Of a stretch of 39,649 nt of DNA, positions 16,130-34,087 are shown in pieces. The translations under genes were made by a program, and so were the position numbers. The notes under the pieces were generated by a model, which did not search any database, was not told the DNA's origin, and worked only from the letters and a program-made list of their open reading frames with translations. The first letter of the stretch is position 1; the number at the start of each line of letters is the position of its first letter. The DNA is taken from NCBI GenBank assembly GCA_029881775.1, contig JAOULY010000001.1, forward strand, positions 1-39,649. Reading direction: 5' to 3'. Source of the stretch: Gammaproteobacteria bacterium (lineage in GTDB: Bacteria; Pseudomonadota; Gammaproteobacteria; UBA9214).

Positions 16130-18172
16130 CTAGCGAAGTTTATTCAGCCAGCCCTGGTTTTCATCATGTCTGTCGAGAAGTAACAGGATGTCTGTCTGCC
16201 CCGCAGCGGCCGCGATATCGCGAACACGTTCGCGCCGGTTATTCCTGATCCGCGTATCGGCGCCGGCCTGGAGCAGCATTGCAACGGTATCTGCGTGACC
16301 GTTGGCTGCAGCCAGCATCAGCGATGTTTCGCCCAGGTTATTTGCAGCATCAATTTCAGCCCCGGCCTTTAGTAATTGGCCGACAATTCCTTGCCGCCCC
16401 TTGTTTGCGGCCAGCATCAGTGATGAGTTCCCGTCGCCGGTACGGGTGTTCACGTCGGCCTGGTGTGAGATCAATTGCTTGACGATCTTCCCGTAACCTT
16501 TTTCAGTAGCATGCATCAAGACCGTGCGACTGTTGTGGTCGCTTGTCGAGACAGTGGCGCCGCTGTCGAGCAACAATCTGGTGTTTTTGTCCAGGCCGCT
16601 GCCGACTGCATACCACAGGGCGGTATGCTTGTTGTGGTCAGCCTGGTTTACACGGGCCGTGCCGGCGAGGAGCAATTTTAGTAACTTGCTATTATTGTTT
16701 TCTGCGGCCAGCATCAAAACAGTAACGCCGGACCTGTCCTGCTGATTCTGGTTGGTCTTGCGCTGTAGCAGGAGTCTGACAATATCCAGGTTGCCATCGC
16801 GCACTGCAATGCACAAGGCGCTGCACCCCTCATTATCCTGGTGGTTGATTGCTGCAGTAACAAGCAGCAGCTTTACGATTCCAGGTTCACCGGAGCGTAC
16901 GCCCCACATCAATGTGCTCGAGCCATCATCGGTCACATCAGCTTTGGCACCGGCGTCCAGCAGGAATTTGACAAGAACACCGTGTCCCTTGTGGGCTGCG
17001 AGTGATAATGCTGTGTGGCCTTCATTGTTCCTGATGTTTATATCGGTGCCGCGCTTGATGATTTCGCGGACAATCTCCTCCTGACCCCGCCATGCAGCTT
17101 CGAGCAACGGCGGCATGCCGGATGATCCGTATGTGTCCTGTTTTTTATCGTGTAATGAAAGAAGTTTGCCGGCAGATGCGGTGGATCGTTTAACGGATGC
17201 TTTCGGTATCGCATTGTGTTTCGCCAGTAATGCGAGAATATTCCTGTGGTTCTTCCTGGCTGCAATGTCTGCTGCAGTCAGGCCATCCCTGTTCGCTATG
17301 TTGAGCCTGGCGCCGTTGGCAATCAATATATCCAGTACGCGTGCATCATCCTTGCCTGCAGCGATCATGGCTGCTGAGTCGCCATTGCGATCTACCAGGT
17401 TGACGGACGCCTTGTTTCGCAGAAGTAGCCTGACGATATCGCCATGTGCGTGCTTCGTTGCGATGTGCAGTGCGCTTTCTCCGCCGTCATTCTGCGCATC
17501 CGGCAAGTGAGAGTCCAAGAGTAGCGCTTCGATTACTTTCGCATTGCCGATTTCCGCGGCCTGCATAAGTGGCGTGTTGTGATAGTCGTCACGTGCGTCG
17601 ATATTGGCGCCTGCAGCGAGCGCCTGGCGGACTTTGTTGTGGTCAGATTTTATGATGGCATGCCGCAGCAGTTCATCGAGTGTCCCGCTTGCAGCGGGCT
17701 GTGGCTCCGATTCGGATGCCGAGACCTTCTTTTGTGCCATCCTGTGACCATTGCCTGCTGCACGTTTAAACCAGTGCAGGGCGTTTTCATAACTGATGTC
17801 GGTTCCCCAGCCATTCTCATACATGACGCCGAGGTTATACTGCGCCTGTGCATGTTCCTGTCTGGCGGCCTTTTGCAGCCAGTCAAAGGCGGCTTTGTGA
17901 TTGCGCGGTACGCCACGGCCGGAGCGGTGCAGTGCTGCAAGCTGGTACTGTGCTTCCGGGTTTCCCGATTTGGCGAGTGGCACAAGTATCGCAACTGCCT
18001 TGTCCATATCACGCATGCGCACGGCGGTGTTGAAATCGCCAAGTACCTCGTTATCTGACGCTGCCGGCAAGCCGGGCGAGATGCAGGCCAGGCCCAGCGC
18101 GGCAGTAAGAGCCAGCATGCGCAGCAGCACTGTTGCGCATAGTCGCAGCTTTCCGGATTCAGGCTGTTCCAT
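16130..18172 (-). CDS. secreted Sel1-repeat plus ankyrin-repeat protein
   Basis: 680 aa. Signal-like N-terminus LRMLALTAALGLACISPGLPAAS. It has 2-3 Sel1 repeats (GNPEAQYQLAALHRSGRGVPRN..., AQAQYNLGVMYENGWG...). About 14 ankyrin repeats follow (recurrent G.T.LM.AA..G....V..LL..GA..N). Confidence 0.85.
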   Translation of the reverse strand: MEQPESGKLRLCATVLLRMLALTAALGLACISPGLPAASDNEVLGDFNTAVRMRDMDKAVAILVPLAKSGNPEAQYQLAALHRSGRGVPRNHKAAFDWLQKAARQEHAQAQYNLGVMYENGWGTDISYENALHWFKRAAGNGHRMAQKKVSASESEPQPAASGTLDELLRHAIIKSDHNKVRQALAAGANIDARDDYHNTPLMQAAEIGNAKVIEALLLDSHLPDAQNDGGESALHIATKHAHGDIVRLLLRNKASVNLVDRNGDSAAMIAAGKDDARVLDILIANGARLNIANRDGLTAADIAARKNHRNILALLAKHNAIPKASVKRSTASAGKLLSLHDKKQDTYGSSGMPPLLEAAWRGQEEIVREIIKRGTDINIRNNEGHTALSLAAHKGHGVLVKFLLDAGAKADVTDDGSSTLMWGVRSGEPGIVKLLLVTAAINHQDNEGCSALCIAVRDGNLDIVRLLLQRKTNQNQQDRSGVTVLMLAAENNNSKLLKLLLAGTARVNQADHNKHTALWYAVGSGLDKNTRLLLDSGATVSTSDHNSRTVLMHATEKGYGKIVKQLISHQADVNTRTGDGNSSLMLAANKGRQGIVGQLLKAGAEIDAANNLGETSLMLAAANGHADTVAMLLQAGADTRIRNNRRERVRDIAAAAGQTDILLLLDRHDENQGWLNKLR

Positions 18173-19472
18173 ATTTTGTCTCTACTTCGATACCGGTATT
18201 TTTCAGGAAAGGAGTGGGTAATACGCCGCCGGCACAAATGATGACAGCGTCATTATCAAGTTCGAGAATATTGCCCTGTTGTTCGATTTTCACTGTTTTG
18301 TCGCAGATTGCTTTTACATTGGATGACATGAGGATTTTCAGGTTGCCTGTTTCGCCCAGTGACGCTATGCGTTGACGGTTCTTTTCCTTTGCGCGCGAGA
18401 ATGATTCGCTTCTGTACGAGATAGTTACCGTGGTGTCTGGTAATTCGGCAATACTTGCCGCTGCCTCAAGTGCGCTGTCGCCGCCACCCACAACCAGGAC
18501 ATGTTGGTTGCGATATTGTTCCGGATCGATAAGGCGATAGACAACTTTGTTTGACTCTTCGCCGGGAACTCCAAGTGTGCGTGGCGTTCCCCTCCGGCCT
18601 ATCGCAAGCAAGACAGATGATGTCCGGTACTCGTTGCTGGACGTTTTTACAATGAAGCCGTCTTCAATACCGTCGATAGTATCCACGCGTTCGCCGTAAT
18701 TGATTTTGATGCCGGTCTTTACAATCACGTCCTGCCAGAACTCCAGTAATTCCTCTTTTGATACTTCCCTGAAATTCATTTTTCCGACGATGGGCAGCTT
18801 GATCGGCGCCGTCATGACAAGCTTGCCGCGCGGGAAGTGGGCGACGGTACCTCCCAGTGAATCCTGATCAACGGCGACGTAGTCCAGTTTGCTTTCATGT
18901 GCAGCCAGGGTGGCGGCGATCCCCGCAGGGCCTGAGCCGATTATCACTACGTCCAGGTAACCACCCGGTGACTTTCGACCAGACCTGATGATGGACTCCA
19001 TGGCCTGGCGGCCCTGTTCTGTTGCGTTCCTGATCAGGCCCATGCCGCCGAGTTCCCCGGCTATGTAAATACCCGCTACGTTGGTTTCAAAGTCCGGTGA
19101 CACCAATGGAATATCGACGCCGCGCTCGGCAGTGCCGAACACCAGGGTGATGGCATCCATCGGGCAGGCTGTCTTGCATGCGCCATGCCCGATGCAGTGG
19201 CTGGGATTGATCAACTCCGCCTTGTCACGGATCAGTCCAAGCACGTTTTTCTCAGGGCAGGCGCTGATGCAGGAACGGCAGCCAATACACGCGGTGGCGT
19301 CAATGACGGGATGCAATGAGGCGGGTTGCATGAGGCCTGCATCACGCGCTTGTTTGAGTTCCCTGTAGGCATGACGTTGCGTGCGCTGACGTTTAGCCAG
19401 GTATGTGCCCCATATGATTAAAAACAGCGCTATGTATATAAAAGTATATTTATCAAACATATACAAAATCAT
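18159..19472 (-). CDS. membrane-anchored 2x[4Fe-4S] ferredoxin-domain / FAD-NAD(P) pyridine-nucleotide-disulfide-family oxidoreductase
   Basis: 437 aa. N-terminal TM helix FIYIALFLIIWGTYLA. Two ferredoxin motifs, CIGCRSCISACP and CIGHGACKTACP. Two Rossmann motifs, VIIGSGPAG and VVGGGDSALE, in a thioredoxin-reductase-like arrangement. It overlaps the downstream ankyrin gene by 14 nt. Confidence 0.8.
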   Translation of the reverse strand: MILYMFDKYTFIYIALFLIIWGTYLAKRQRTQRHAYRELKQARDAGLMQPASLHPVIDATACIGCRSCISACPEKNVLGLIRDKAELINPSHCIGHGACKTACPMDAITLVFGTAERGVDIPLVSPDFETNVAGIYIAGELGGMGLIRNATEQGRQAMESIIRSGRKSPGGYLDVVIIGSGPAGIAATLAAHESKLDYVAVDQDSLGGTVAHFPRGKLVMTAPIKLPIVGKMNFREVSKEELLEFWQDVIVKTGIKINYGERVDTIDGIEDGFIVKTSSNEYRTSSVLLAIGRRGTPRTLGVPGEESNKVVYRLIDPEQYRNQHVLVVGGGDSALEAAASIAELPDTTVTISYRSESFSRAKEKNRQRIASLGETGNLKILMSSNVKAICDKTVKIEQQGNILELDNDAVIICAGGVLPTPFLKNTGIEVETKYGTA

Positions 19473-19860
19473 TACCAGTTCATGACAGTGATTAACGGGC
19501 GCAATTACCTGTATTTAGTGCCGGTGTGAGTTTAGTTGCTTTCGGTAAAATATGGGAATATATTCCCAATAATTAGAAATGGGTCACAGTTGCCTCCCTG
19601 TTGATCTGGTCTCCTTATGTCGCATCACCGGGTCAGGCGTTGTGGACTGGCGGTTGCAGCAATGCATACGGCCGGCGGTGATTCATCTTTAAACAAAGAC
19701 TATGGGCGAATCCTGATGGAAAGAAATGTGACTGGTTTGGCAGTTGTTAAAGAATGCTGCTGCATTGGCAAAGATCGTAGCTATTTCACAGACATAGTGC
19801 GATATGCGTGACAGTGTCAGTACCACTGAATCAGCAGATGAAATTTATGCAGGCATCGGT

Positions 19861-20556
19861 ATGAAGACAACGGCAGTTTTGGCTTTGATTATCCCTTTGG
19901 CGACGGTTGGTTTTTACTTGCTGATGGATGACAGGCAGTTGAATGACAGTGACCTGCACTCAGGCAGCGCTGACATGCCGCCGGCATCCTCGCCATCGCC
20001 GGTTAATGCGGTAAAGCCACTGCCAAGAGTCGAAGATATGCTGGGTAAGCTTGAGGCCAGGCTAGAGTCAGACCCGGATGATGCGAGTGGCTGGAACCTG
20101 CTTGGCAAATCCTATGAATATCTTGGCCGACCAGATGCAGCTGAAAAGGCCTTCAATCGGGCCAGGGCGCTTGGTTATTCAGATGACGCAACAAGCGTCA
20201 ATACAGGCAGGCGTATAAAAGTAATCGCCAGCATTGAACCTTCGCTGGTAGATGCCGTATCGATGACCGACACCGTTTTCGTATTTGCACGGGCCGTGAA
20301 TGGACCGCGCATACCATTAGCCACGCTAAGGAAGCAGGCCTCTGAGCTGCCTTTTGAGTTTGAGCTGGATGATTCAATGGCGGTGTCGCCGTTCGCGAAG
20401 CTATCAGATTACGAGAAAATTATTATCGGTGTGCGTGTATCGCGTAGCGGAGAAACATTCGCCAGGGAAGGTGACCTGGAAGGTTTTAGTGGGCTTGTCT
20501 CGCCAGGTGCTGCAGATGTAGTGCCTGTCATTGTCAGTCAGGCTGTCATCAGGTAG
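19861..20556 (+). CDS. CcmI/CycH-like apocytochrome c chaperone (single TM, TPR and C-terminal domain)
   Basis: Start moved to ATG 19861 (MKTTAVLALIIPLATVGFYLLM anchor). LEARLESDPDDASGWNLLGKSYEYLGRPDAAEKAF and the C-terminal TVFVFARAVNGPRIPLATLRKQASELPFEFELDDSMAV..VRVSRSG match the conserved C-terminal module of CcmI. Confidence 0.65.
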   Translation: MKTTAVLALIIPLATVGFYLLMDDRQLNDSDLHSGSADMPPASSPSPVNAVKPLPRVEDMLGKLEARLESDPDDASGWNLLGKSYEYLGRPDAAEKAFNRARALGYSDDATSVNTGRRIKVIASIEPSLVDAVSMTDTVFVFARAVNGPRIPLATLRKQASELPFEFELDDSMAVSPFAKLSDYEKIIIGVRVSRSGETFAREGDLEGFSGLVSPGAADVVPVIVSQAVIR

Positions 20557-20566
20557 TTCCATAATT

Positions 20567-21499
20567 ATGAATGCCGTTACCAGGGAAATGAATGCAGCAT
20601 CGGATGGTGATTTTGGAAATGCCGATAATGCGCAAAGGTTAAAGCGTTTGCGTGCCCTGATTGCAGGCGGGCCACGCACCCTGATGATGTATATGACTGT
20701 GATCGCCATTCTTTACGCGGGATGGAGCAGACGGGGTGATGTTTACCTCTCCCCCGAAGAAGGCCTTGGCTATGCGCTGGGTATTACTGGCGGCCTTATG
20801 ATGTTGTCATTGTTGTTGTATCCGTTACGCAAGCATAAAAAATGGGCGCGCATCCTCGGTGGTGTGCGCAACTGGTTCAGGATGCATATGGTTCTGGGTG
20901 TAATCGGGCCTGTCTGCATTCTCTACCACTGTAATTTCCAGCTGGGTTCAATGAACGGAAATGTAGCTCTCTTCAGTATGCTGCTGGTGGCATCGAGTGG
21001 CTTGATAGGTCGCTATTTTTACGGGCGTGTTCATTACGGCCTGCACGGATCTAAAGCCGATCTGGAGAATCTGGGTAGCGACGCAGCTGCACTCAGGGGC
21101 TGTATGAAATATATCTTCGAAGAATCACCGTCTATGCAGAAGAGGCTTGACGGGCTGGATGCTAAAACGCGAAATCTCCCGGATGGCTTTGTTGCCAGTT
21201 TCATACATGTCATTTACATATCAATGCTTACAAGGTGGGCCCGGTTGGCAACAGCCAGGGATTTGCGCCTTGCTATCAATGCTATACATGCGAAAAACAG
21301 GATGGACAGACAGACGCTGGGTTCTCTTGATGAGGTCAGTCGGTTCTACCTGAAAACTTACCTCGAAGCGATCAAGCGCGTAGCCGGCTTCAGCTTTTAT
21401 GAGCGGCTATTTTCACTTTGGCATTTATTGCATATGCCATTGTTCATGATGCTGCTGGTTACAGGCACCATTCATGTGCTTGCCGTGCATATGTATTGA
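20567..21499 (+). CDS. polytopic inner-membrane protein with conserved-looking intramembrane histidines (candidate b-type haem / quinone-interacting subunit)
   Basis: Start moved to ATG 20567, 10 nt after the upstream stop. Five predicted TM helices. His residues sit in helices 3 and 5 (WFRMHMVLGVIGPVCILYH; LWHLLHMPLFMMLLVTGTIHVLAVH). A soluble helical insert of about 120 aa lies between TM4 and TM5. I did not recognise a family. Confidence 0.55.
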   Translation: MNAVTREMNAASDGDFGNADNAQRLKRLRALIAGGPRTLMMYMTVIAILYAGWSRRGDVYLSPEEGLGYALGITGGLMMLSLLLYPLRKHKKWARILGGVRNWFRMHMVLGVIGPVCILYHCNFQLGSMNGNVALFSMLLVASSGLIGRYFYGRVHYGLHGSKADLENLGSDAAALRGCMKYIFEESPSMQKRLDGLDAKTRNLPDGFVASFIHVIYISMLTRWARLATARDLRLAINAIHAKNRMDRQTLGSLDEVSRFYLKTYLEAIKRVAGFSFYERLFSLWHLLHMPLFMMLLVTGTIHVLAVHMY

Positions 21500-21507
21500 T
21501 TCAGTGA

Positions 21508-23085
21508 ATGATTGCCGTAAGCATGAAACCGGTTTGTCCGTGCGTCCTTGTATTTTTTGTCACGATGTTGGCATTAACGGCAAATGTGCAGGCGCGCAGC
21601 CTTGAATCGCTGATCATGCCAGGCAAGCTGATCGAAGGGCATGCCAAGTATGAGGATGAATGTAATCAGTGCCACCGTCCGTTCAGCAAGGAAAGCCAGA
21701 ATGTTCTGTGTCTCGATTGCCATGAACAGGTTGCAGAAGATGTTGACGGCAAGAAAGGGTTTCATGGGCTCAGTCGTCTTGGCGAGTATGAATGTAGTAC
21801 ATGTCATGAAGATCACAAGGGACGGGATGCGCAGGTGATGCAATTCAGTACCGATACATTTGACCATGATTTGACTGATTACCCGTTAAAGGGGATGCAT
21901 GGTGTTGTGGTTTGTAATGCCTGTCACAAGAGCGGGGACAAGTACAGGGAAGCACCGGGCGAATGTTTTGACTGTCATGAGGCTGATGACATGCACAAGG
22001 GTAATCTCGGCAAGAAGTGTTCGGATTGCCACAGCGTCAAGGGCTGGCGGGAAGAACAGAAGTTTGAGCACGATGAAACAGACTTCAAGCTGCTTGGAAA
22101 GCATGAGGATGTCGAGTGCGACAGTTGTCATGCCAGCCAGCGTTATGAAAACACACCCATGGAATGCAGTACCTGTCACCGGTTCAATGATGTGCATGCA
22201 GGTAATTACGGCACGGACTGCGGCAACTGTCATCGTGAGGAAGGCTGGAAAAAAATCCGCTTCAATCACGACAAGACGGATTTTCCATTGACCGGGAACC
22301 ATCGCGATGTGAAATGCGATACATGTCACGGTGGTGACGTGCTGGCGGATAACCTGGGGACAGACTGCGTGTCATGTCACAAGGGTGACGACGAACACAA
22401 GGGTCAGTATGGAAAGAAGTGCGAATCCTGTCATAAGACCAGTGGCTGGGACAAGGTAAAGTTTGATCATGACAAAGAGACTGATTTCCCGCTGCGCGGC
22501 AAGCATATCGATCAGCAATGTAGCGCATGCCATCGGGGAGAACTTGGTAATGAGTCGCTGGCTAGAAAATGCATCGACTGTCACAAGGCCAATGATGTTC
22601 ATGCAGGCGAGCAGGGCGAGACATGTGATCAATGCCACGGCGAGAAAGGCTGGGCGACGAAAGTGCGTTTTGAGCATGATATGACGAGTTTTCCCCTGAT
22701 CGGCATGCATGGCGTCGCACCCTGCGAGGAATGTCATTTGTCCGCAGTGTTTTCGGATGCGCGGGCTGAATGTGATGCCTGCCATGCAGGTGATGATGTG
22801 CATGAGAAGAAGCTCGGGCCGGCTTGCGAGGCGTGTCATAACCCGAATGCATGGACATTGTGGGAATTTGATCACAATAACCGGACAGATTTCACGCTGG
22901 ACGGGAGTCACGTCGGTATCGATTGTCACGCTTGCCACAAGCAGCCCGTGAAGAAAAAGATCAAGCAGAGCGGTGCATGTGGTAGCTGCCACAGGGATGA
23001 CGATGTGCATGACGGCGGGTTCGGACGATTCTGTACGCGCTGTCATAACACGAAATCATTCGGTGCCATCGAGATAAACAGGTAG
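21508..23085 (+). CDS. periplasmic 21-haem c-type cytochrome (seven c7/c3-type trihaem modules)
   Basis: 525 aa with a signal peptide (alternative start ATG 21523). I counted 21 CxxCH motifs, spaced as 7 repeats of about 70 aa. Each repeat has the pattern F.HD.TDF.L.G.H....C..CH ... C..CH..DD.H.G..G..C..CH....W. Confidence 0.9.
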   Translation: MIAVSMKPVCPCVLVFFVTMLALTANVQARSLESLIMPGKLIEGHAKYEDECNQCHRPFSKESQNVLCLDCHEQVAEDVDGKKGFHGLSRLGEYECSTCHEDHKGRDAQVMQFSTDTFDHDLTDYPLKGMHGVVVCNACHKSGDKYREAPGECFDCHEADDMHKGNLGKKCSDCHSVKGWREEQKFEHDETDFKLLGKHEDVECDSCHASQRYENTPMECSTCHRFNDVHAGNYGTDCGNCHREEGWKKIRFNHDKTDFPLTGNHRDVKCDTCHGGDVLADNLGTDCVSCHKGDDEHKGQYGKKCESCHKTSGWDKVKFDHDKETDFPLRGKHIDQQCSACHRGELGNESLARKCIDCHKANDVHAGEQGETCDQCHGEKGWATKVRFEHDMTSFPLIGMHGVAPCEECHLSAVFSDARAECDACHAGDDVHEKKLGPACEACHNPNAWTLWEFDHNNRTDFTLDGSHVGIDCHACHKQPVKKKIKQSGACGSCHRDDDVHDGGFGRFCTRCHNTKSFGAIEINR

Positions 23086-23094
23086 GCGAAAAGC

Positions 23095-26000
23095 ATGGAT
23101 GCGCATATGCAGTGCGCTGCGAGAATCGTTATGAAAAATAGCAGGATAAACAAACGTGCACTGACAGTTTTCAGTACGGGCATCACCGCGCAGGTCATGG
23201 CGGCCTTGCTGGTCATCATGTCAGCTGTCCTGGTGAGCGTATCTGGCGAGGTTAACGCGGCGCAGCCCGCAGCAGAATCCGGGTATGTTATTCGGCTGGC
23301 ATCCTCATCGGCGCGTGATTTCTCTGCCGCCGATGTTCATGGCGCCGGGATCCATGCGGAACAGGCATTTTATTCAACCCGATTCAACAGGAGCGGTAAG
23401 CAGTGGCGCCAGTTACGCCTGGGTTTCTTCAGGACGCGGGCAGAGGCTGAATCGGTATTGAAAAAGCTGGCGAAGCACTATCCCGGCGCCCAGGTAGCCC
23501 GGGCGACATCTGCCGATATTCGCTATGCGTCCAGTGAGCCCGTGGGCGCCCCGGCAGTTGTGACTCGCCAGCCTGTGAACAAGGCCGCCAAAGCCGGGAC
23601 GTCTGCAGAAAGTATGATAACAACCACGCAGGAGCCTTCAATAACTGGCGGGTTGAGCCGGCTGTCGCCGACCAGCTGGTTTAAGCGAAACAGGGAAAAG
23701 GATGTGCCCGAAGCCGGGCAAGCCGTGCGGCCGGCAAATCAGCTTGTCAGTACGGCAGAGACGAATAGCGCGCCTGTGAAGACTGTTGATGAAGCGCCTC
23801 GCTTGTCACATAAAGTCGCTGGGCCTGTAATCCAGGAAAGTGGTGGTGCAGTTACCTTGCCTGCAGGTGCCGTGGGGAATGACGACAAGCCCCTGTTATC
23901 CATGTTTGGGAAGCTGTCACCTGCGAAATGGTTTTCCGGAAACGACCGGGCCGGCCCGGATTCCGGTAGTAAAGCCTTGCAGATTGCCGCTGTTGACTCG
24001 ACGGCTGTTGCTGCAACGGTAAAACAGCCAGCTGGAGGTTTTGACCACCTTTCTACCGGTTTCGCGCTGGACGGCGCGCATGCGGATGCGGATTGTTCCA
24101 GCTGCCATTTGCAGGGTGTCTTCGAAGGCACGCCCTCGGAGTGCAGCAACTGTCATGGCGTAGGTAGCCGGATGTCGGGTGAAACCATGTCATCGGACCA
24201 TATCAAGACCATGCCGCTATGCGAGGAATGCCATACAGCGCAACTGTGGTCGCCGTTGAGCAGGATGAATCATGATGTGGTGACCGGTAGTTGCGGTAGT
24301 TGCCATGACGGGCGGAAAGCCACCGGCAAGTCGCCGGGGCATATTCAGAGTGCTGACACCTGTGATGACTGCCACAATACCGCGACCTGGCGCGCCTCGG
24401 CATTTGATCACAGTGGTGTAGCGACGGGTAGCTGTTTCAGTTGTCATAATGGCAGTACCGCTACCGGCAAGGTTGCAAACCATGTTGCCAGCAGCAATAC
24501 CTGTGATGATTGCCACACTGTCAATGGCTGGATACCGGCGTTATTTGACCACAGTGGCGTGTCAGGTAATTGCGCGTCCTGCCACAACGGTACCACGGCT
24601 ACCGGGAGGAGTGCTGCGCATATCAGTACGACCAGCAGCTGTGAGTCGTGCCATGTTACGAGTTTATGGACGCCGGTACAGCGGCCGGATCACACGCAGG
24701 TACTGGGTACCTGCTTCAGCTGCCACAACGGCAGCACGGCATCCGGCAAGTCGGGCAGCCACATTACCAGCGGTAATACCTGCGACGATTGTCATAGCAC
24801 GGTGTCATGGACGAATGCGACGTTTGATCACAGTGGCGTAAGCGGGAATTGCGCGTCCTGCCACAACGGTACCACGGCAACCGGCAAGAACGGCACGCAC
24901 ATCCAGACCACGAACACCTGCGAGGACTGTCACAATTCGACGGTGTGGCGTCCGGTTAGCCGTGTCGATCATGCCGCAGTACTGGGTACCTGCTTCAGCT
25001 GCCACAACGGCAGCACGGCATCCGGCAAGTCGGGCAGCCACATTACCAGCGGTAATACCTGCGACGATTGTCATAGCACGGTGTCATGGACGAATGCGAC
25101 GTTTGATCACAGTGGCGTAAGCGGGAATTGCGCGTCCTGCCACAACGGTACCACGGCAACCGGCAAGAACGGCACGCACATCCAGACCACGAACACCTGC
25201 GAGGACTGTCATGGCACCAGCCTATGGCGCCCGGTCATTCGCGTCGACCATGTTGCGGTGATCGGTACCTGTTTCAGTTGCCATAACGGGTCCACGGCCA
25301 GTGGCAAGACGCCGAACCATATAAGCAGTGGCAACACCTGCGATGATTGTCACAGTACCAGCGGCTGGATCCCGGCCGTGTTCGATCACAGTACGGTGAG
25401 TGGCAGTTGTTTTTCCTGCCACAATGGTACGACGGCGACCGGCAAGAACGGCACGCATATCCAGACAACGAATCTGTGCGAGGATTGCCACAATTCGACG
25501 CTGTGGCGTCCGGTTACCCGTGTCGATCATGCCGATGTAATTGGTACCTGTTTCAGTTGCCATAACGGAACGACGGCCAGTGGAAAAACACCGAATCACG
25601 TTGCCAGTGGTAATACCTGTGATGATTGTCATAGCACCAATGGCTGGATACCGGCGGTTTTCGATCACAGCGCCGTCTCGCCAGGGACTTGCAGTACCTG
25701 TCACAACGGCAGTACGGCGACAGGCAAGCCGGGAAATCATGTGCAGACCACTGGACAGTGCGACAACTGTCACTCGACCATCGCCTGGTTACCGGCAACG
25801 TTCGATCACAACAATGTGTCGCCCGGCACCTGTTCTGGTTGTCATAACGGCAATACGGCAACCGGTAAGCCGGGCGGGCATTTCGTTACAACATTGCAAT
25901 GTGATGATTGCCATTCGGTAAATAACTGGCTATCGGTCGTCTATCAGCATGTGTCCGGCGCCTACCCGGGTGATCACAGCGGGAATCCGGTCTGTACCCA

Positions 26001-26190
26001 GTGTCATACGGCTAACAGCCAGGTCATGAACTGGCCTGCGCCAGCCTACCAGCCTGACTGTGCCGGTTGTCACGCCAGTGACTACAAGGCGGGTGTGGAC
26101 AAACACCAGAGTCTCAGCCTGGATCGTAATTGTGCCGGTTCCTGTCACCAGGCCAGTCCGGAGCACAGCGTGAACAGCAGGGAATGGTAA
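23095..26190 (+). CDS. 29-haem c-type cytochrome with N-terminal membrane anchor/signal, SPOR-like domain and low-complexity linker
   Basis: 1031 aa (alternative start ATG 23131). Hydrophobic segment ITAQVMAALLVIMSAVLVSVSG. SPOR-like domain at aa 63-142. Ala/Pro/Ser/Gly-rich linker at aa 143-333. From aa 334 to the end there are 29 CxxCH motifs plus one CAGSCH, in tandem dihaem units of the doubled-CXXCH type. Confidence 0.9.
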   Translation: MDAHMQCAARIVMKNSRINKRALTVFSTGITAQVMAALLVIMSAVLVSVSGEVNAAQPAAESGYVIRLASSSARDFSAADVHGAGIHAEQAFYSTRFNRSGKQWRQLRLGFFRTRAEAESVLKKLAKHYPGAQVARATSADIRYASSEPVGAPAVVTRQPVNKAAKAGTSAESMITTTQEPSITGGLSRLSPTSWFKRNREKDVPEAGQAVRPANQLVSTAETNSAPVKTVDEAPRLSHKVAGPVIQESGGAVTLPAGAVGNDDKPLLSMFGKLSPAKWFSGNDRAGPDSGSKALQIAAVDSTAVAATVKQPAGGFDHLSTGFALDGAHADADCSSCHLQGVFEGTPSECSNCHGVGSRMSGETMSSDHIKTMPLCEECHTAQLWSPLSRMNHDVVTGSCGSCHDGRKATGKSPGHIQSADTCDDCHNTATWRASAFDHSGVATGSCFSCHNGSTATGKVANHVASSNTCDDCHTVNGWIPALFDHSGVSGNCASCHNGTTATGRSAAHISTTSSCESCHVTSLWTPVQRPDHTQVLGTCFSCHNGSTASGKSGSHITSGNTCDDCHSTVSWTNATFDHSGVSGNCASCHNGTTATGKNGTHIQTTNTCEDCHNSTVWRPVSRVDHAAVLGTCFSCHNGSTASGKSGSHITSGNTCDDCHSTVSWTNATFDHSGVSGNCASCHNGTTATGKNGTHIQTTNTCEDCHGTSLWRPVIRVDHVAVIGTCFSCHNGSTASGKTPNHISSGNTCDDCHSTSGWIPAVFDHSTVSGSCFSCHNGTTATGKNGTHIQTTNLCEDCHNSTLWRPVTRVDHADVIGTCFSCHNGTTASGKTPNHVASGNTCDDCHSTNGWIPAVFDHSAVSPGTCSTCHNGSTATGKPGNHVQTTGQCDNCHSTIAWLPATFDHNNVSPGTCSGCHNGNTATGKPGGHFVTTLQCDDCHSVNNWLSVVYQHVSGAYPGDHSGNPVCTQCHTANSQVMNWPAPAYQPDCAGCHASDYKAGVDKHQSLSLDRNCAGSCHQASPEHSVNSREW
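23281..23520 (+). other. SPOR-like (peptidoglycan-binding) domain of the 29-haem cytochrome
   Basis: GYVIRLASSS...YSTRFNRSGKQWRQLRLGFFRTRAEAESVLKKLAKHYPGAQVA follows the SPOR pattern: an unconserved beta strand, then yRvrvGpF.s..eA..v...l....p.a.v. Confidence 0.6.
24700..25211. repeat. perfect 233-bp direct repeat (two copies, 279-bp period) inside the 29-haem gene
   Basis: 24700-24932 is base-for-base identical to 24979-25211; I checked this by reading both copies. Each copy encodes VLGTCFSCHNGSTASGKSGSHITSGNTCDDCHSTVSWTNATFDHSGVSGNCASCHNGTTATGKNGTHIQTTNTCEDCH. Confidence 0.95.
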
Positions 26191-26316
26191 TGGCTGTAGC
26201 GGCGTGTTATCGACCGGAGAAAGAGCATTACCTGGTTGCCAATGCCGTCCGGATACCGCATCGATTGCATCCGGCGTGAAGATAAACCTGTTCAATCAGC
26301 AGAAGAATTCGGGAAT

Positions 26317-28788
26317 ATGAATACACACAATCGTATTGGCAACAGCCTGGTGGCAATCTTGTTTATGCTGGCGATGTCAGCCGTTGCATCGGTTGCACAT
26401 GCGCAGATAGATGTGCTGGATGCCATTGATGTCAGCCATGCTGACGACTACTCGACTATCAGTATAAATCTGAATGTCCCCGTGCATTACAAGTCGCATG
26501 TCCCGCAGAAATCCGGTGATGTGCTGCGTATTCGCGTCGATCCGGTGCTGACCCTGGGAACTGAAAACGACATCCTGTTCGGTAATGAATTTCTCCAGTG
26601 GAGTCCGGACAAACAGGTGCCCTTGTCAGAGGTTACCTACCAGAGTTCCGGGCCATCGACAGCGACGATTATTTTGCAATTCGAGGAAAGCGTTGAATTC
26701 GAGGTGCCTAAAAGCCCGAACTCAAGGCGTCTTGTCGTCAGGGTGAAACACCCGGAAGCACATACGCGGGAGAAACGGCTGCAGTCGCTGTCCTATGCGA
26801 TCAACCTGGCATCCTCGACGACGCCGTTCACTGACGAAGAGATACCACAGGTCGATGCCATGCTCTCCTATCGCCTGTATACGACAGAATTCATGAAGAA
26901 CGGCAAGCAGTGGACGCGCCTGCGACTCGGTTTCTTTGATAATCAGCAGGAGGCGAGGAGTGTGCTTAATTCGCTGAAGGCGAATTACCCGAGGGCCTGG
27001 GTCGTGTCGGTTCCGGCGGAAGAGGTGAGTAGCTCGGCGAATTCGATTTACAGCGACCGGCGGCGCCGTGAGAAAACCATGCCGGATCAGGCGCAGCAGG
27101 CGCCTGTGCCACCCGCGTTCGATATACCGGCAGACAGGCCGGCCGGCGCTGCAGACATGGAAAAAGTCGCGGCCCTGATGAAAGAGGCCGGCCAGTTAAT
27201 GACCGACAGGTTATACGACCGGGCAATTCAGTTGTATACCAAGGTGCTCGAGTATCCCGAGAGTGAGTCTAGTCCTGCTGCCCTGGAATTTCTCGGCCTG
27301 GCGCGCGAGCGCAAGGGACAGCTGGCCCAGGCGAAATCTGTTTATGGCCAGTACCTGGAGCAGTACCCGGAAGGTGAAGATGCAGAACGGGTCCGCCAGC
27401 GGCTTGCCGGCCTGGTGACTGCAAGCAAGACACCGAAAGACCGTCTGAAATCCGCGAAATCGCGCAGCAGGACAGGTGCAGACTGGGATGTATTCGGAGG
27501 TTTTTCCCAGTTCTTCCGGCGCGATGAAAATACCACCGAGGTCAACAACGCGAACCAGACGACCCTGGTGACACAGAAGTCACTGTCGTCTGATCTTGAT
27601 ATTACCGGCCGCCTGAGAACGGCGGACTATGACATGCGGACCCGCCTGACCGGCGGTTACCTGCATGACTTTCTAAACAACGGTGATGATAGCGAATCGA
27701 CTGTCAGTTCCCTGTATTTCGATGCCAGGGACAGCAGGCGCAACCTGGGTTTGCGGTTGGGGCGGCAATCACGCAGTACCGGTGGCGTGCTCGGCCGTTT
27801 CGATGGGCTGCTGGTAGATCTGCCGGTAACACAGTCCATCGGTTTTTCGGTTGTTGGCGGTTTTCCGGTCAACTCGTCGCGGGACGGTTTCAATAACGAG
27901 AAATACTTTTACGGTGCCGGCCTGGAGTTCGAGGACTTTGCCAGAGGGTGGGATGCGAATGCGTTTCTGATTGAGCAGCAGGTGGAAAGTATTATTGACC
28001 GGCGTGCAGTGGGTGGTGAGCTTCGCTATTTCGACTCGAGCAGGTCGCTGTTTGTGCTTGCCGATTACGATATTTTCTACAATGCCCTGAACACGGCTCA
28101 AATACTCGGTAACTGGACGACAGACGACAAGACCACCTTCAATATTGTGCTCGATTACAGGAACAGCCCGATCCTGACAACCAGCAATGCCCTTCAGGGC
28201 GAGCCGGTTCTGACCACGATTGAGCAGCTGCTGACAAGCTTCACCGAAGACCAGGTCTATGGATTTGCTGAAGACCGGACGGCGAGCAGTAAACTGGCCA
28301 CGTTTGGCGTAACACGGCCGGTGAGTGAAAAATTGCAGCTCAGTGGCGATCTGACATGGTCAAAATTATCTGACACGGTAGCTTCAGGTAATGTGACTAT
28401 CCCAAATCCGGGTACAGACAACGAGTGGTTCTACAATCTCCAGCTGATAGGCAGTAATCTGCTGAAAGAAGGCGATATAACCATCCTTGGCCTGCGCTTT
28501 ATCGATGCAACTGTCTCCAATACAACATCCCTGTCGATTAATTCCCGTTACCCGGTTACTAAAGACTTTCGCGTCAATCCAAGGTTCCAGGTCGATTACA
28601 GACAAAATCAAACGGACGGCAGCGAGCAAATGATTTATCGACCGACAGCGCGGTTGACCTACAGTATCCAGCGGCGTTTCCGGCTGGAGGCCGAGCTGGG
28701 TGGTGAATGGTCGGACCGGGAGATTGTTACCGGCACGACCCAGTCAGAGAGCTACTTCGTCAACCTTGGTTACCGGGCGGATTTCTAG
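26317..28788 (+). CDS. outer-membrane protein: AMIN-like, SPOR-like and TPR segments followed by a C-terminal beta-barrel
   Basis: Start moved to ATG 26317 (MNTHNRIGNSLVAILFMLAMSAVASVAHA signal). Mature aa about 1-120 is AMIN-like (IDVSHADDYSTISINLNVPVHY...RRLVVRV). Next come a SPOR-like domain and TPR helices (YDRAIQLYTKVLEYPES...AKSVYGQYLEQYPEGEDAERV). The last roughly 440 aa has an amphipathic beta-strand pattern and ends ...YFVNLGYRADF, a typical OMP C-terminal Phe signature. Confidence 0.75.
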   Translation: MNTHNRIGNSLVAILFMLAMSAVASVAHAQIDVLDAIDVSHADDYSTISINLNVPVHYKSHVPQKSGDVLRIRVDPVLTLGTENDILFGNEFLQWSPDKQVPLSEVTYQSSGPSTATIILQFEESVEFEVPKSPNSRRLVVRVKHPEAHTREKRLQSLSYAINLASSTTPFTDEEIPQVDAMLSYRLYTTEFMKNGKQWTRLRLGFFDNQQEARSVLNSLKANYPRAWVVSVPAEEVSSSANSIYSDRRRREKTMPDQAQQAPVPPAFDIPADRPAGAADMEKVAALMKEAGQLMTDRLYDRAIQLYTKVLEYPESESSPAALEFLGLARERKGQLAQAKSVYGQYLEQYPEGEDAERVRQRLAGLVTASKTPKDRLKSAKSRSRTGADWDVFGGFSQFFRRDENTTEVNNANQTTLVTQKSLSSDLDITGRLRTADYDMRTRLTGGYLHDFLNNGDDSESTVSSLYFDARDSRRNLGLRLGRQSRSTGGVLGRFDGLLVDLPVTQSIGFSVVGGFPVNSSRDGFNNEKYFYGAGLEFEDFARGWDANAFLIEQQVESIIDRRAVGGELRYFDSSRSLFVLADYDIFYNALNTAQILGNWTTDDKTTFNIVLDYRNSPILTTSNALQGEPVLTTIEQLLTSFTEDQVYGFAEDRTASSKLATFGVTRPVSEKLQLSGDLTWSKLSDTVASGNVTIPNPGTDNEWFYNLQLIGSNLLKEGDITILGLRFIDATVSNTTSLSINSRYPVTKDFRVNPRFQVDYRQNQTDGSEQMIYRPTARLTYSIQRRFRLEAELGGEWSDREIVTGTTQSESYFVNLGYRADF
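26791..27024 (+). other. SPOR-like domain of the outer-membrane protein, paralogous to 23281-23520
   Basis: SYAINLASST...YTTEFMKNGKQWTRLRLGFFDNQQEARSVLNSLKANYPRAWVV aligns without gaps over GKQW..LRLGFF....EA.SVL..L...YP.A.V with the cytochrome's domain. Confidence 0.6.
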
Positions 28789-28892: not shown

Positions 28893-29702
28893 ATGCCTGA
28901 AAAAATCACTAAATCCTTGAATACAGCAGTCCTGCGGATAATGCGTCCGCTGGTGCGCATTATGTTGCGCAACGGAATCGCCTACGGCACGTTCGCCGGC
29001 CTGGTCAGACAGGTCTACGTGGACGTTGCTTTTGCGGAGTTTACAACCGAGGGGCGCAAGCAAACTGTATCGAGGGTGTCCGCACTGACCGGCCTCACCC
29101 GTAAAGAGGTGAAACGGTTGCTCGAGCTGGACTCAACACCCGAATCGGAAGGACAGGCCCGCTTCAGCCGGGGGGTGCGTGTTGTCAGTGGCTGGATGAA
29201 TGACAGTCAATTTCACGACAGCAAGGGCAAGCCGGCAAATTTGCCTGTTGAAGGCAAGCACAAGTCGTTTACCGCGCTGGTCAGGAAATACAGCGGCGAC
29301 ATCACCATGCGTGCAATGCTGACCATGCTGGAAGAGGGAGGCACGGTCCGGGTGAAGAATGACGCTGTTCACCTCGTCCGTCACGCGTATATACCCGGCG
29401 GGGATGATGTTGAAAAAATCGCGATACTCGGCAGTGATGTCAGTGAATTGATTGCAACGATTGACCATAACATCGTTGCTGACCCGGAAGAGTTGTGGTT
29501 TCAGCGCAAGGTATCCTACGACAACGTGGCGCCGGAACATCTCGACAAGCTCAGGAAAATCTCGGCCAGGAAGGCGCAGGCATTGCTGGAATCGCTGGAC
29601 AGGCAATATTCGGATCATGAGCTTGACGTGGAAAAAAGGCAGGGGCGTCTGGTCAGTTTCGGTATTTACTACCATGAGCACGATACGCCGGGAGAGCAGT
29701 AG
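28893..29702 (+). CDS. cytoplasmic hypothetical protein with a helix-turn-helix-like segment
   Basis: 269 aa with no signal peptide. The candidate HTH is QTVSRVSALTGLTRKEVKRLLE. An AT-rich 104-nt upstream spacer has TTGAAT-N18/19-TATATA(AT). Its stop is 2 nt before the next start. Confidence 0.55.
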   Translation: MPEKITKSLNTAVLRIMRPLVRIMLRNGIAYGTFAGLVRQVYVDVAFAEFTTEGRKQTVSRVSALTGLTRKEVKRLLELDSTPESEGQARFSRGVRVVSGWMNDSQFHDSKGKPANLPVEGKHKSFTALVRKYSGDITMRAMLTMLEEGGTVRVKNDAVHLVRHAYIPGGDDVEKIAILGSDVSELIATIDHNIVADPEELWFQRKVSYDNVAPEHLDKLRKISARKAQALLESLDRQYSDHELDVEKRQGRLVSFGIYYHEHDTPGEQ

Positions 29703-29704
29703 CG

Positions 29705-31171
29705 ATGCGATTCACTAACATCAAATTCAGCACTGTTTTCTCTGCCCTGCTTGTGTCCCTGGTGGTTGCCTGTGGCGATGAACAACTCGCCGGCGGCGGA
29801 ATCGGTGGCACCGGCATTACATCCGGCACCGTTACGGGGTTCGGCAGCGTGTTCGTGAACGGCGTTGAGTTCGACACCAGCGGTGCTGCGCGCATGGTTG
29901 ATGATGTCGCGTCCGTCAGTAATGGCTTCGACGACATTACCGTTATGAAGCAGGGGATGGTCGTCACTGTCACTGGCACGGTAAACCCGGATGGGGTGAC
30001 GGGCACGGCTACTTCGGTAGATTTCGATGAGGTTATTGAAGGCCCGATTGGTACTGTGCCGGTTGAGGATGCTGACATGATCCTGAAAACGTTCGATATC
30101 CTGGGTACCAATGTAATCGTTAACAGGAATACCACGGTGTTTGTTGATACCGACTATGTGTCGATTACGCATGATGACGTGATCGAAGTGAGTGGTTTCT
30201 TCGATGCATCCGGCAACCTGGTTGCCACGCTGGTGGACAAGGAAGGCGTTTTGTCTCCGGGTTCAACCGTAGAGGTGCATGGCGTTGTTAGCGGGTTTAA
30301 CGGTATTGATACCTTCAAGCTGGGTCCGGTGACCGTTGTCTATGACGGTATTACGGTGTTCGACAAGTTGCCGGGCACCGTGAGTGACGGACAGTTTGTT
30401 GAAGCCAGCGGCACATTGACCGGCGCGAGAATGATAAACGCTGCGCGTATCGAGCTGGAGGATGACGCGCTGATACAGGCTGGCCCGGTCAGCCTGGAAG
30501 GTATTGTCACCCGGTTTGGTTCTACGGCGGATTTCATGGTCGGCGGCCAGCAGGTCAACGCGTCTGCGGCCGTGTTCGTACCGGTAACACTGGCTGCAAC
30601 CATCGACAAGGACAGCCGCGTAGAAATCACTGGAACAGTCGCCGGGACCGTGTTGACGGCAGCAGTTGTGGAGGATCGTGGTGGTGCGGTCAAGGTCGGC
30701 GGGCGTGTCAATTCTGTCGATACGCAGTACATGACCGTGGACGTAGAGGTCGTATCGGGCGAGCCATTCGTGCGGATCAATATCAACACAAGAACCCAGC
30801 TGGAAGATGAGCTGGGAGGGCCGCAACCGTTTACGCTGTCCAGCCTGCGGCAGGGTGATGAAGTTATTATCGAGGGCTTGAGTGGTGCCGGTAACAGTGT
30901 TGATGCGAAGCAACTCAAGCGCAAGGTGCTCGACAAATATGAACTCAAGGCAATGACGCAGTCCGCAACGGGTGACAACTCATCAGGTGCTGTTACCCTG
31001 CTCGGTGTGACATTCTCGACTAACGGCTCGACCCGGTTTGAAGACAGCAATGACCAGACGTTTCCAAATGGAGGCGATGATTTCTACAGCCTGGTTCGCC
31101 CGGGAGACATCCTCGAGGTTGAAGACCACAAGCCGGTGAATGGAATTGCTGACGAGGTTGAATTGAAGTAA
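29705..31171 (+). CDS. lipoprotein built from about 6 repeated beta-rich (DUF5666-like / OB-like) modules
   Basis: 488 aa. Lipobox LVVAC-G. Modules recur, such as VEVHGVVSGFNGIDTFKLGPVTVVYDGITVF, VSLEGIVTRFGSTADFMVGGQQVNASAAVF and GTVTGFGSVFVNGVEFDTSG. Confidence 0.65.
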   Translation: MRFTNIKFSTVFSALLVSLVVACGDEQLAGGGIGGTGITSGTVTGFGSVFVNGVEFDTSGAARMVDDVASVSNGFDDITVMKQGMVVTVTGTVNPDGVTGTATSVDFDEVIEGPIGTVPVEDADMILKTFDILGTNVIVNRNTTVFVDTDYVSITHDDVIEVSGFFDASGNLVATLVDKEGVLSPGSTVEVHGVVSGFNGIDTFKLGPVTVVYDGITVFDKLPGTVSDGQFVEASGTLTGARMINAARIELEDDALIQAGPVSLEGIVTRFGSTADFMVGGQQVNASAAVFVPVTLAATIDKDSRVEITGTVAGTVLTAAVVEDRGGAVKVGGRVNSVDTQYMTVDVEVVSGEPFVRININTRTQLEDELGGPQPFTLSSLRQGDEVIIEGLSGAGNSVDAKQLKRKVLDKYELKAMTQSATGDNSSGAVTLLGVTFSTNGSTRFEDSNDQTFPNGGDDFYSLVRPGDILEVEDHKPVNGIADEVELK

Positions 31172-32882: not shown

Positions 32883-32917
32883 CCCGCACCGGTATAGCTA
32901 CCGGTGCGGGTTTTTTT
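32883..32917. terminator. bidirectional rho-independent terminator (cytochrome c / ctaA, convergent)
   Basis: 12-bp stem CCCGCACCGGTA/TACCGGTGCGGG with loop TAGC. T7 lies downstream and an A-run upstream. It overlaps the ctaA stop codon. Confidence 0.8.
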
Positions 32918-33944: not shown

Positions 33945-34087
33945 TGTGACAGGAAGGCTAATTCCGTAATTCCCGGGCAAGCAATATTGTACCTGAAAAC
34001 TTTTCAACGGTCGGCAGTTTGTCTTGTGTTTGCACGGGATTAAAGGACTGCGCTAACATCAATTCCGGATATCAGGCGGGGAACAGT

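Follow-up and report, generated by a model that had tools for sequence, protein, structure and literature searches.

We found that two neighbouring proteins encoded in one operon of an uncultured gammaproteobacterium, a large multihaem cytochrome and an outer-membrane porin, each carry a domain of the SPOR type, a family whose members bind peptidoglycan glycan strands that lack peptide stems (PMC6895207). The operon lies at 19804–28788 of a 39,649-nucleotide stretch of DNA (assembly GCA_029881775.1, contig JAOULY010000001.1, positions 1 to 39,649 of the forward strand; the whole of this stretch is hereafter called the window), and it is predicted to encode a PCC3-type porin–cytochrome conduit that would pass electrons across the envelope of its autotrophic host. 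The PCC3 cluster has already been described (He et al. 2017) and is experimentally uncharacterised; what is new here is the presence of SPOR modules, putative wall binders, on its porin and its large cytochrome. The porin module is an old, near-universal accessory, and the cytochrome module, which is related to the porin type, was added at the N-terminus in particular lineages. On balance, and judging from sequences and structure models, we lean towards the reading that these modules tether the two proteins to the peptidoglycan and co-localise them there.

Two Paralogous Segments of the SPOR Type

A first-pass annotation of this DNA had proposed that a giant multihaem cytochrome and the adjacent outer-membrane protein share a SPOR-like module, at 23281–23520 and 26791–27024, respectively. 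Both the coordinates and the sequences given there proved correct, the first segment being residues 63–142 of the cytochrome open reading frame (ORF) and the second lying in the porin ORF. The two proteins were also correctly named: the first has 29 CxxCH motifs and one CxxxCH motif with matches to Cytochrome_C7/c3, and the second ends in ...GYRADF and has a C-terminal 22-strand barrel in its AlphaFold2 model. When the whole proteins were compared by BLASTP, these segments were the only parts that aligned (30 of 79 residues identical, 38%; E = 4e-12). The alignment contains one single-residue gap near its N-terminal end and none across the core, in agreement with the earlier description of paralogous modules with an ungapped core.

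Do these segments belong to the SPOR family proper? Both scored above the gathering score of the Pfam SPOR family (PF05036; 21 bits) in a search of the kind that the first-pass annotation had proposed as a check, with a SPOR hidden Markov model (HMM). The cytochrome segment reached 23.2 bits in the full protein and 28.3–29.2 bits when excised, and the porin segment reached 34.2 and 36.9 bits. Each of the 55 family members in our alignment A2 matched PF05036 individually. The profile made from these 55 members retrieved the SPOR domain of DamX (2LFV) from the sequences of the PDB (E = 1.1e-5), with strand beta-1 (HYTLQLSSS versus rYvinLaSS) and the Trp strand in register. Single-sequence searches against the PDB sequences returned nothing significant, the best matches being ribosomal protein eL13 for the cytochrome segment (E = 0.25) and DamX for the porin segment (E = 0.21), and no NCBIfam model matched either segment.

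The structure models led to the same family. The AlphaFold2 model of the cytochrome segment (predicted local distance difference test score, pLDDT, 75.7) has strands at 10–17, 37–45, 48–58, and 79–82 and helices at 24–28 and 61–71, that is, the beta-alpha-beta-beta-alpha-beta order of the SPOR fold, in which two helices back an antiparallel sheet of four strands, and the porin segment shows this order in the full-length porin model. The best PDB matches of the cytochrome model in Foldseek were the Pseudomonas RlpA SPOR structures 6I09 and 6I05 (with and without bound denuded glycan), with a template modelling (TM) score of 0.77 when normalised to the target and 0.62–0.63 when normalised to the query, and a root-mean-square deviation of 2.5 Å. 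Other ferredoxin-like folds scored at most 0.45 on either normalisation. The assignment of both segments as SPOR-type domains with a ribonucleoprotein (RNP)-like fold is thus supported by family profiles and by predicted structures.

The Operon as a PCC3 Cluster

PCC3 was defined bioinformatically by He et al. (2017; PMC5566968). As described there, its inner-membrane protein has about 300 residues, two WX3HX13H motifs, an SGXXG motif, and five transmembrane helices; its periplasmic cytochrome has a median of 21 haems; and its large cytochrome, with a median of 34 haems, is of low complexity, internally repeated, and predicted to be extracellular. For some PCC3 porins, up to 42 transmembrane segments were predicted. 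In the published model, the wire that spans the periplasm under the barrel is the upstream periplasmic cytochrome, which corresponds here to the 21-haem protein at 21508–23085. Two more recent papers continue to treat the function of PCC3 as unverified.

The full set of PCC3 components is co-located at 20531–28788 of the window. The inner-membrane protein is a 322-residue ORF (20531–21499, + strand; likely start at ATG 20567), which has the two WX3HX13H motifs (W115 and W297) and an SGLIG motif beginning at S156. It has no Pfam match, and its motifs lead us to predict that it binds two b haems in a ferric-reductase-domain-like manner. The 'periplasmic' cytochrome (21508–23085, + strand) has 525 residues, 21 CxxCH motifs, and Pfam matches to Cytochrome_C7/c3, with no SPOR domain. 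Together with the 29 CxxCH and one CxxxCH of the large cytochrome, it provides the haem-dense, repeated cytochromes typical of PCC3. A tblastn search with the porin covered residues 9–823 in Amphritea atlantica DSM 18887 (E = 1e-169). In the locus of this strain, cytochromes with 21 and 63 haems lie upstream of the porin, the same numbers as were quoted for it in the 2017 paper (PMC5566968). The PCC3 gene order recurs in about 45 related loci, with a 21-haem protein at this position in nearly all related loci, and relatives of the porin were found in at least 518 species genomes in a scan of one genome per species.

We assign the operon to PCC3 because the inner-membrane motifs, the haem counts, the gene order, and the homology to the Amphritea porin all match. 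A pilus/secretin system or a cellulose/Pel-type exporter, which the TPR-plus-barrel layout of the porin had first suggested, was dropped on the basis of the inner-membrane motifs, the haem counts, and the Amphritea homology.

Domain Layout of the Large Cytochrome and the Porin

The large cytochrome, called 'extracellular' in the literature, is encoded at 23095–26190 (+ strand; 1031 residues, likely ATG at 23131). Its Pfam matches are Cytochrome_C7 (8.4e-43) and SPOR. A predicted Sec signal peptide, read from the translation (23131–23259), has a hydrophobic core followed by ...GEVNA and, after the putative cleavage site at residue 55, AQ. The SPOR domain begins about 8 residues past this signal peptide and occupies residues 62–142 (23278–23520, + strand), as delimited by Pfam (residues 62–134), AlphaFold2, and Foldseek. 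It is followed by a disordered, flexible linker of about 170–180 residues that is rich in Ala, Ser, Pro, and Gly (23521–24033, + strand), recognised from its composition and from alignment A4 of five orthologues, in which it varies in length and is poorly conserved except for two short islands. We refer below to related loci by L numbers and to database proteins by P numbers. The first island, LSRLSPTSWF (23653–23682, + strand), is conserved in the window, L001, L003, L010, P0131, and P0136, and the second, MFGKLSPAKWF (23902–23934, + strand), in the window, L001, L003, L010, and P0136; both share the pattern (L/F)xxLSPxxWF.

The haem domain, placed by its CxxCH positions, starts at the conserved motif GFDHLSTGF and extends over 24034–26187 (+ strand). 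The haem region is composed of 12.6% Ser, 12.4% Thr, and 10.3% Gly. Within it, a tandem repeat at 24695–25670 has a unit of 279 nucleotides, or 93 residues with four haems, present in about 3.1–3.5 copies with 81–82% identity. Haem counts in the orthologues range from 29 to at least 57, which argues that haem number changes through repeat expansion; such counts are minimum values, since the repeat-rich region may be collapsed in short-read assemblies. The PCC3 large cytochromes without a SPOR domain begin at a GF(D/N)H motif straight after the signal peptide, as in L005, and the SPOR domain plus linker can therefore be seen as a discrete N-terminal add-on. The window's own SPOR-cytochrome was not returned by either protein-database search, and the adjacent porin was present (P0010); the source annotation may have left the cytochrome gene out or flagged it as a pseudogene.

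The porin (26317–28788, + strand) has 823 residues from its ATG, with an open frame back to a TTG at 26236 (850-residue ORF, 26236–28788). Its AlphaFold2 model, with a mean pLDDT of 83.5, consists of a signal peptide (residues 1–27), a beta-sandwich (34–144), the SPOR domain (159–232), a disordered stretch (248–274), TPR helices (278–369), and a barrel (391–822). The N-terminal periplasmic beta-sandwich (26416–26748, + strand) was delimited by its modelled strands and has no Pfam match. The SPOR domain (26791–27012, + strand) was placed by Pfam (34.2–36.9 bits), AlphaFold2, and the conserved columns of alignment A1. The TPR module beneath the barrel (27148–27423, + strand) matches Pfam TPR_6 and related families, with weak YbgF/CpoB-like and BamD-like matches, and forms helices in the model. 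The C-terminal barrel (27487–28785, + strand) has 22 modelled strands and a helical insert (nucleotides 28180–28275, residues 622–653), and it ends in ...YRADF.

A Foldseek search with the full porin model returned generic outer-membrane barrels only (OprD-like porins, AlgE, FimD, and PelBC), with no specific barrel family and no match to the beta-sandwich. The beta-sandwich is homologous to a free-standing secreted protein of 148 residues that is encoded directly upstream of the porin in L005 (9555–10001; E = 5e-10), and it may be AMIN-like. Free-standing proteins of this beta-sandwich type, of about 150 residues, were observed next upstream of the porin in both L005 (9555–10001) and L004 (738–1226).

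A Common Module on Porins and a Rare One on Cytochromes

How widely do PCC3 proteins carry SPOR domains? All reading frames of 86 loci were scanned with an HMM built from the SPOR columns of the family; these loci come from the 80 best-matching genomes out of at least 518 related ones, a sample that is biased to close relatives of the window. SPOR-like domains are present on the porin in 79 of the 86 loci, six of which have two or three tandem copies, and seven porins have none. The TPR module and the barrel form the invariant core of the porin family, and one porin has nothing else, whereas the Amphritea porin keeps the SPOR domain and is missing the beta-sandwich. As seven porins do without SPOR and one consists of TPR and barrel only, we regard the SPOR domain as a common accessory to that core.

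The cytochromes showed a different distribution. Both cytochromes are visible in about 45 loci, and the large one carries SPOR in seven of these. Five of the seven (the window, L001, L002, L003, and L010) are gammaproteobacterial metagenome-assembled genomes (MAGs); the others are L059, a "Deltaproteobacteria" MAG, and L074. The SPOR-cytochrome of L010 has 1754 residues and 57 CxxCH motifs, that of L059 has 37 haems, and that of L074 has 29 haems and three tandem SPOR domains. Among 5.8 billion proteins, the N-terminal region of the SPOR-cytochrome has two syntenic relatives only. A profile of the cytochrome-type SPOR domain gave 670 hits in 1.84 billion representative proteins, and among the best 147 of these, which we examined, SPOR and CxxCH are combined only in P0136, P0157, and fragments. 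P0130 and P0204, which also rank at the top of this search, are spurious matches to giant proteins of Ig-like repeats. The remark in the first-pass annotation that SPOR domains were not known on cytochromes was thus well placed: on multihaem cytochromes they are few in database surveys, and the literature, as far as it is searchable, has none.

Some 118 of these 147 matches (P0139–P0274) are neither porins nor cytochromes, and many of them are unrelated proteins of 250–560 residues with two tandem SPOR-like domains. Another two of them, P0224 and P0264, are proline-rich proteins of about 1200 residues with a SPOR-like domain at each end.

The cytochrome SPOR domains fall into three sequence groups, which are 52–84% identical within a group and at most 42% identical across groups in the comparisons reported. 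Their identity to the porin SPOR domains is 41–51%, so that members of different cytochrome groups are no closer to one another than to the porin type. These values suggest that the cytochromes gained the domain at least three times independently from porin-type modules, within the limited resolution of an 80-residue domain.

Could the fusion be an artefact of a chimeric metagenome contig or a miscalled start, or else a decaying, functionless remnant? The haem region is repetitive and prone to mis-assembly, the related contigs L001 and L002 contain frameshifts, and the window's cytochrome is missing from the protein database while the adjacent porin is there. Yet the order SPOR–linker–haem recurs in six further loci. 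It lies in a single frame, from SPOR through linker to CxxCH, in L003 (GCA_041395565.1), L010, L059, and L074 and in the database proteins P0136 and P0157, and L001 and L002 show the same order across frameshifts that are typical of their assemblies. Because the same architecture is found in one frame in other loci, the fusion is not an assembly artefact of the window. In addition, the cytochrome SPOR domain is 52–79% identical among orthologues, with invariant core residues, whereas the adjoining linker diverges, a pattern that indicates purifying selection on the domain. An artefact or a dead remnant is therefore very improbable.

Further SPOR proteins and repeats were observed in the surveyed loci. 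In L059, a free-standing protein of 137 residues with a signal peptide and a SPOR domain (6110–6520) is encoded between the 21-haem cytochrome and the SPOR-cytochrome, and this cluster has three SPOR-bearing proteins in all. In L029, the place of the large cytochrome is taken by a 353-residue protein without haem motifs (1063–2121), which has a SPOR domain and Sel1-like repeats and is flanked by a partial 21-haem-type cytochrome and the porin. The linkers between the SPOR copies of L074 have a different repeated motif, LSGFVSGI(I/L)SSYK.

Glycan-Contact Residues

In FtsN, residues Q251, S254, W283, R285, and I313 are needed for septal localisation and glycan binding, and in the RlpA complex the equivalents of Q251 and R285 (RlpA Q270 and R309) contact the lactyl carboxylate of N-acetylmuramic acid that is bared by removal of the stem peptide (PMC6895207). 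We mapped these contact residues by eye, anchoring the alignment to FtsN on the conserved Gly and Trp; four positions could be mapped. The porin SPOR domain has N163, S166, W199, and R201 there, three of them identical to FtsN and the fourth a change of Gln to Asn, and it also has the invariant R203 and W228 in strand beta-4. The cytochrome SPOR domain has R67, S70, W104, and Q106, two of which are identical to FtsN, together with the invariant R108 and Q133 in beta-4. Of the 86 SPOR-like domains of porins, 63 read N,S,W,R at these positions. All five gammaproteobacterial cytochrome SPOR domains have R,S,W,Q, that is, with the Gln and Arg positions exchanged (codons 23290–23292 and 23410–23412 of the window), whereas the SPOR domain of the L059 cytochrome keeps the porin pattern and that of L074 reads N,S,W,G. 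In beta-4, the cytochrome type has Gln (GAQV), as against the near-invariant Trp of the porins (AW[IV]). The exchange of Gln and Arg could be compensatory, with binding preserved, because both residues address the same lactyl carboxylate; it could just as well be the sign of a different ligand.

These differences bear on a rival explanation, in which the SPOR-like modules serve protein–protein docking: the cytochrome copy would pair with the porin copy, the TPR module, or the beta-sandwich, and the sheet face of the RNP-like fold would have been put to a new use. Such a role would fit the changes in the cytochrome copy at three sheet-face positions where the porin type is conserved (Gln/Asn to Arg, Arg to Gln, and Trp to Gln), as well as the fact that the module was added only to partners within the same operon. 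The Foldseek matches, with their wide range of folds, illustrate how versatile RNP/ferredoxin-like folds are, and TPR domains typically bind short peptides, of which the linker, with its two conserved short motifs, could offer some. However, N,S,W,R, the canonical contact pattern, is retained in the porin copy, and all family members match Pfam SPOR. Moreover, most porins have the SPOR domain while their cytochromes do not, so paired docking is not its general function, and the exchanged Gln and Arg map to the very residues (FtsN Q251 and R285) whose counterparts meet the same lactyl carboxylate in RlpA, so that the swap could leave binding intact. We therefore consider docking an unlikely function of the modules. 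A narrower proposal, which we offer as speculation, is that the porin TPR module is a candidate docking partner for the LSPxxWF motifs of the linker.

Proposed Tethering to the Cell Wall

How would wall binding by both proteins operate? In the tethering model that we favour, the flexible stalk of the porin (beta-sandwich, SPOR domain, disordered stretch, and TPR module) would reach the sacculus and pin the periplasmic base of the barrel there. Since the cytochrome SPOR domain starts about 8 residues after the hydrophobic core of the signal peptide, the domain could come into contact with the wall only after cleavage of that peptide; once freed from the membrane, it would tether the N-terminus of the cytochrome to the peptidoglycan on the periplasmic side, beside the porin. 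A common docking site of porin and cytochrome on the sacculus is plausible from their shared module.

A domain that binds the wall from the periplasm would be of little use to a wholly external protein. The SPOR domain therefore argues that, in the lineages that have it on the 'extracellular' PCC3 cytochrome, at least the N-terminus of this cytochrome lies in the periplasm. Two topologies would then be conceivable. The haem domain may stay wholly in the periplasm, or the haem wire may lie outside, tethered from the inside by a linker that passes through or beside the barrel. The first-pass annotation had placed a haem wire across the wall directly beneath its own barrel. Its starting point, a module shared by the two proteins, has held, but its geometry cannot be derived directly from it: in the published model, the wire under the barrel is the 21-haem cytochrome, which has no SPOR domain, and the cytochrome that does carry SPOR is drawn outside. 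A more specific version of the second topology has the large cytochrome threaded through its own 22-strand barrel, with the SPOR domain on the peptidoglycan inside, the LSPxxWF linker held by the porin TPR module and running through or alongside the pore, and the 30-haem wire outside. We put this forward tentatively and think it rather improbable. If it were true, it would be a cell-wall-anchored extracellular nanowire, which has not been described for any electron conduit, and the repeated independent gains of the tether would reflect selection to keep a wire that could otherwise be shed.

Could the modules instead direct the complex to a place and time in the cell cycle? Here, they would bind denuded glycan for targeting to the septum or the new pole, as in FtsN, DamX, DedD, and RlpA, and not for permanent anchoring. 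The open wall at these sites would let a long haem protein thread through, and the complex would be inherited by both daughter cells. The characterised SPOR domains are described as septal targeting modules, as denuded glycans are enriched at the septum (PMC6895207); the porin contact residues are conserved; and the porin TPR module bears a weak resemblance to the Tol-Pal partner YbgF/CpoB (33.8 bits, cutoff 90). This last resemblance, however, is a generic TPR similarity only, and the tandem arrays of two or three SPOR domains suggest avidity for a stable attachment. Sequence does not separate transient targeting from stable tethering; we judge targeting to be improbable, a little more so than the docking role discussed above.

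Several observations weigh against tethering as well. The cytochrome SPOR domain is non-canonical at two of the four mapped contacts (Arg for Q251 and Gln for R285) and has Gln for the beta-4 Trp, and its ligand could differ from the canonical one. The Foldseek E-value for this domain is 0.014 and the mean pLDDT of its model is 75.7. The SPOR-cytochrome fusions all come from metagenome assemblies. In 38 of the roughly 45 loci the large cytochrome has no SPOR domain, and PF05036 was found in none of the 120 best homologues of the haem domain; as most large cytochromes lack it, SPOR must be dispensable for the core function of PCC3. The published PCC3 models put the large cytochrome outside the cell (PMC5566968), where peptidoglycan is absent. 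Finally, the PCC3 complex is itself functionally unverified according to the literature, and the peptidoglycan binding and topology that we propose are inferred. Weighed together with the profile and model matches to SPOR, these points leave tethering and co-localisation as the reading to which we incline.

Neighbouring Genes and the Host

The first gene of the operon (19804–20556, + strand) encodes a CycH/CcmI-like protein with TPR and Ig-like domains (Pfam Ig_CycH, 5.6e-28, and a weaker TPR_CcmH_CycH match). By its domains, it is probably a cytochrome c maturation helper, and its position is kept in L001, L002, and L003. Downstream of the porin lie genes for a DUF6502 protein (28893–29702) and a DUF5666 protein (29705–31171), a pair spanning 28893–31171 on the + strand and recognised by Pfam. 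The same pair was also observed 3' of the porin in the closest loci, L001–L003, and not in L005.

Divergent from the operon, on the − strand, is a gene for a protein with Pfam 4Fe-4S dicluster and FAD/NAD(P) oxidoreductase domains (18159–19472), paired with one for a Sel1/ankyrin-repeat protein (16130–18172; Pfam). The gene for the Fe-S flavoprotein is also found beside the operon in L001, L002, L003, and L005. For its partner, Pfam matches to Sel1/ankyrin are recorded only from the window and from L001; in L002, L003, and L005, this position is taken by a gene without a recorded Pfam match. The flavoprotein could be the cytoplasmic redox partner of the ferric-reductase-like dihaem inner-membrane protein, in the manner of a split NOX/FRE-like chain; it is not mentioned in those parts of the published PCC3 descriptions that were accessible.

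The host is an uncultured gammaproteobacterium, regarded here as a sulfur bacterium, and the porin is identical to the database entry P0010, 'MAG: SPOR domain-containing protein [Gammaproteobacteria bacterium]'. Phosphoribulokinase and sulfur-transport genes are also present in the window, and DsrC and DsrE are encoded on related contigs. Elsewhere in the window, we observed sucrose-phosphate synthase/phosphatase fusion genes (3785–6795), probably for the synthesis of a compatible solute, as well as COX15 (32916–34007), phosphoribulokinase (35303–36175), and a SulP transporter (36200–38329). These genes together fit a marine or saline autotroph.

Significance and Comparison with Known Systems

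PCC3 clusters are widespread, with hosts that include iron oxidisers, sulfur oxidisers, and animal symbionts, and they are invoked as electron conduits. The SPOR domain on most PCC3 porins, and repeatedly on the 'extracellular' cytochrome, provides the first directly testable constraint on the structure and topology of PCC3. It suggests how a very large envelope-spanning redox machine may be fixed to the sacculus, or possibly targeted to sites of open wall. It also adds redox proteins and integral outer-membrane barrels to the division and wall-remodelling factors on which SPOR had been known, and the cytochrome copy offers a natural Gln/Arg swap variant for the study of glycan recognition.

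The closest known system is PCC3 (He et al. 2017, PMC5566968; Hoover et al. 2023, PMC10734462), with which the operon shares the gene order, the inner-membrane motifs, the haem numbers (21 and 29–30, as compared with published medians of 21 and 34), the Ser/Thr/Gly-rich repeats, and the porin homology. It differs in the N-terminal SPOR domain and linker of the large cytochrome, which are at odds with a purely extracellular place, and in the modelled barrel, which has 22 strands as against the up to 42 transmembrane segments predicted in 2017. SPOR, TPR, and peptidoglycan are not mentioned for any PCC3 component in the accessible portions of the published PCC3 descriptions. 'SPOR domain' and 'multiheme cytochrome' are not combined in the literature as far as it is searchable, and a looser search, which matched 61 papers, showed nothing relevant in the titles and the openings of abstracts of the 15 listed. 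The product name that NCBI gave automatically to the porin is the only earlier trace of SPOR in this system.

MtrCAB, MtoAB, and PioAB are alike in that a multihaem cytochrome is sheathed by an outer-membrane barrel, and MtrCAB also has a second cytochrome outside. The cytochromes of the window are, however, 2–3 times larger. An MtrCAB/MtoAB-type system was rejected because there is no family-level homology: the match to the MtrA/DmsE family (TIGR03508) scored 117.1 bits, below its cutoff of 192.2, the porin had no MtrB-type match in Pfam or NCBIfam, and the 50 listed Foldseek matches included no MtrCAB entry. Unlike MtrC, a lipoprotein that leaves the cell by type II secretion, the large cytochrome here has a plain predicted signal peptide. 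Domains that bind the wall are not known to us from the Mtr, Mto, or Pio proteins.

The idea of cytochromes held in the wall has a counterpart in Gram-positive electrogens of the genus Thermincola, in which multihaem cytochromes in or on the peptidoglycan reportedly conduct electrons through the wall. The type of envelope differs there, and, to our knowledge, no SPOR domain has been reported for the Thermincola wall cytochromes. PilQ secretins with AMIN domains, OmpA/Pal-type domains, AlgK–AlgE, PelB, BcsC, and PgaA follow a similar architecture, in which periplasmic modules extend from an outer-membrane barrel to the wall or to partner proteins. AlgE and PelBC were among the barrel matches of the porin in Foldseek, at a generic level (target-normalised TM 0.29–0.41). 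The TPR-barrel polysaccharide exporters have 16–18 strands, whereas the porin has 22 in its model and a haem protein as its presumed cargo, and we found no sequence family that it shares with them.

The known SPOR proteins are division or wall-remodelling factors, and we know of no redox protein and no integral outer-membrane barrel among them. With the canonical members (FtsN, DamX, DedD, RlpA, and CwlC), the two domains of the window share the Pfam family, the predicted fold, and Ser and Trp at the mapped contact positions; there, the porin copy also keeps the Arg and an amide residue, and RlpA is likewise attached to the outer membrane. The cytochrome copy differs from them in its swapped Gln and Arg contact positions. 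It differs in its placement too: in FtsN, DamX, and DedD, the SPOR domain is C-terminal and follows a long linker from an inner-membrane anchor, whereas in the cytochrome it is N-terminal and precedes the linker.

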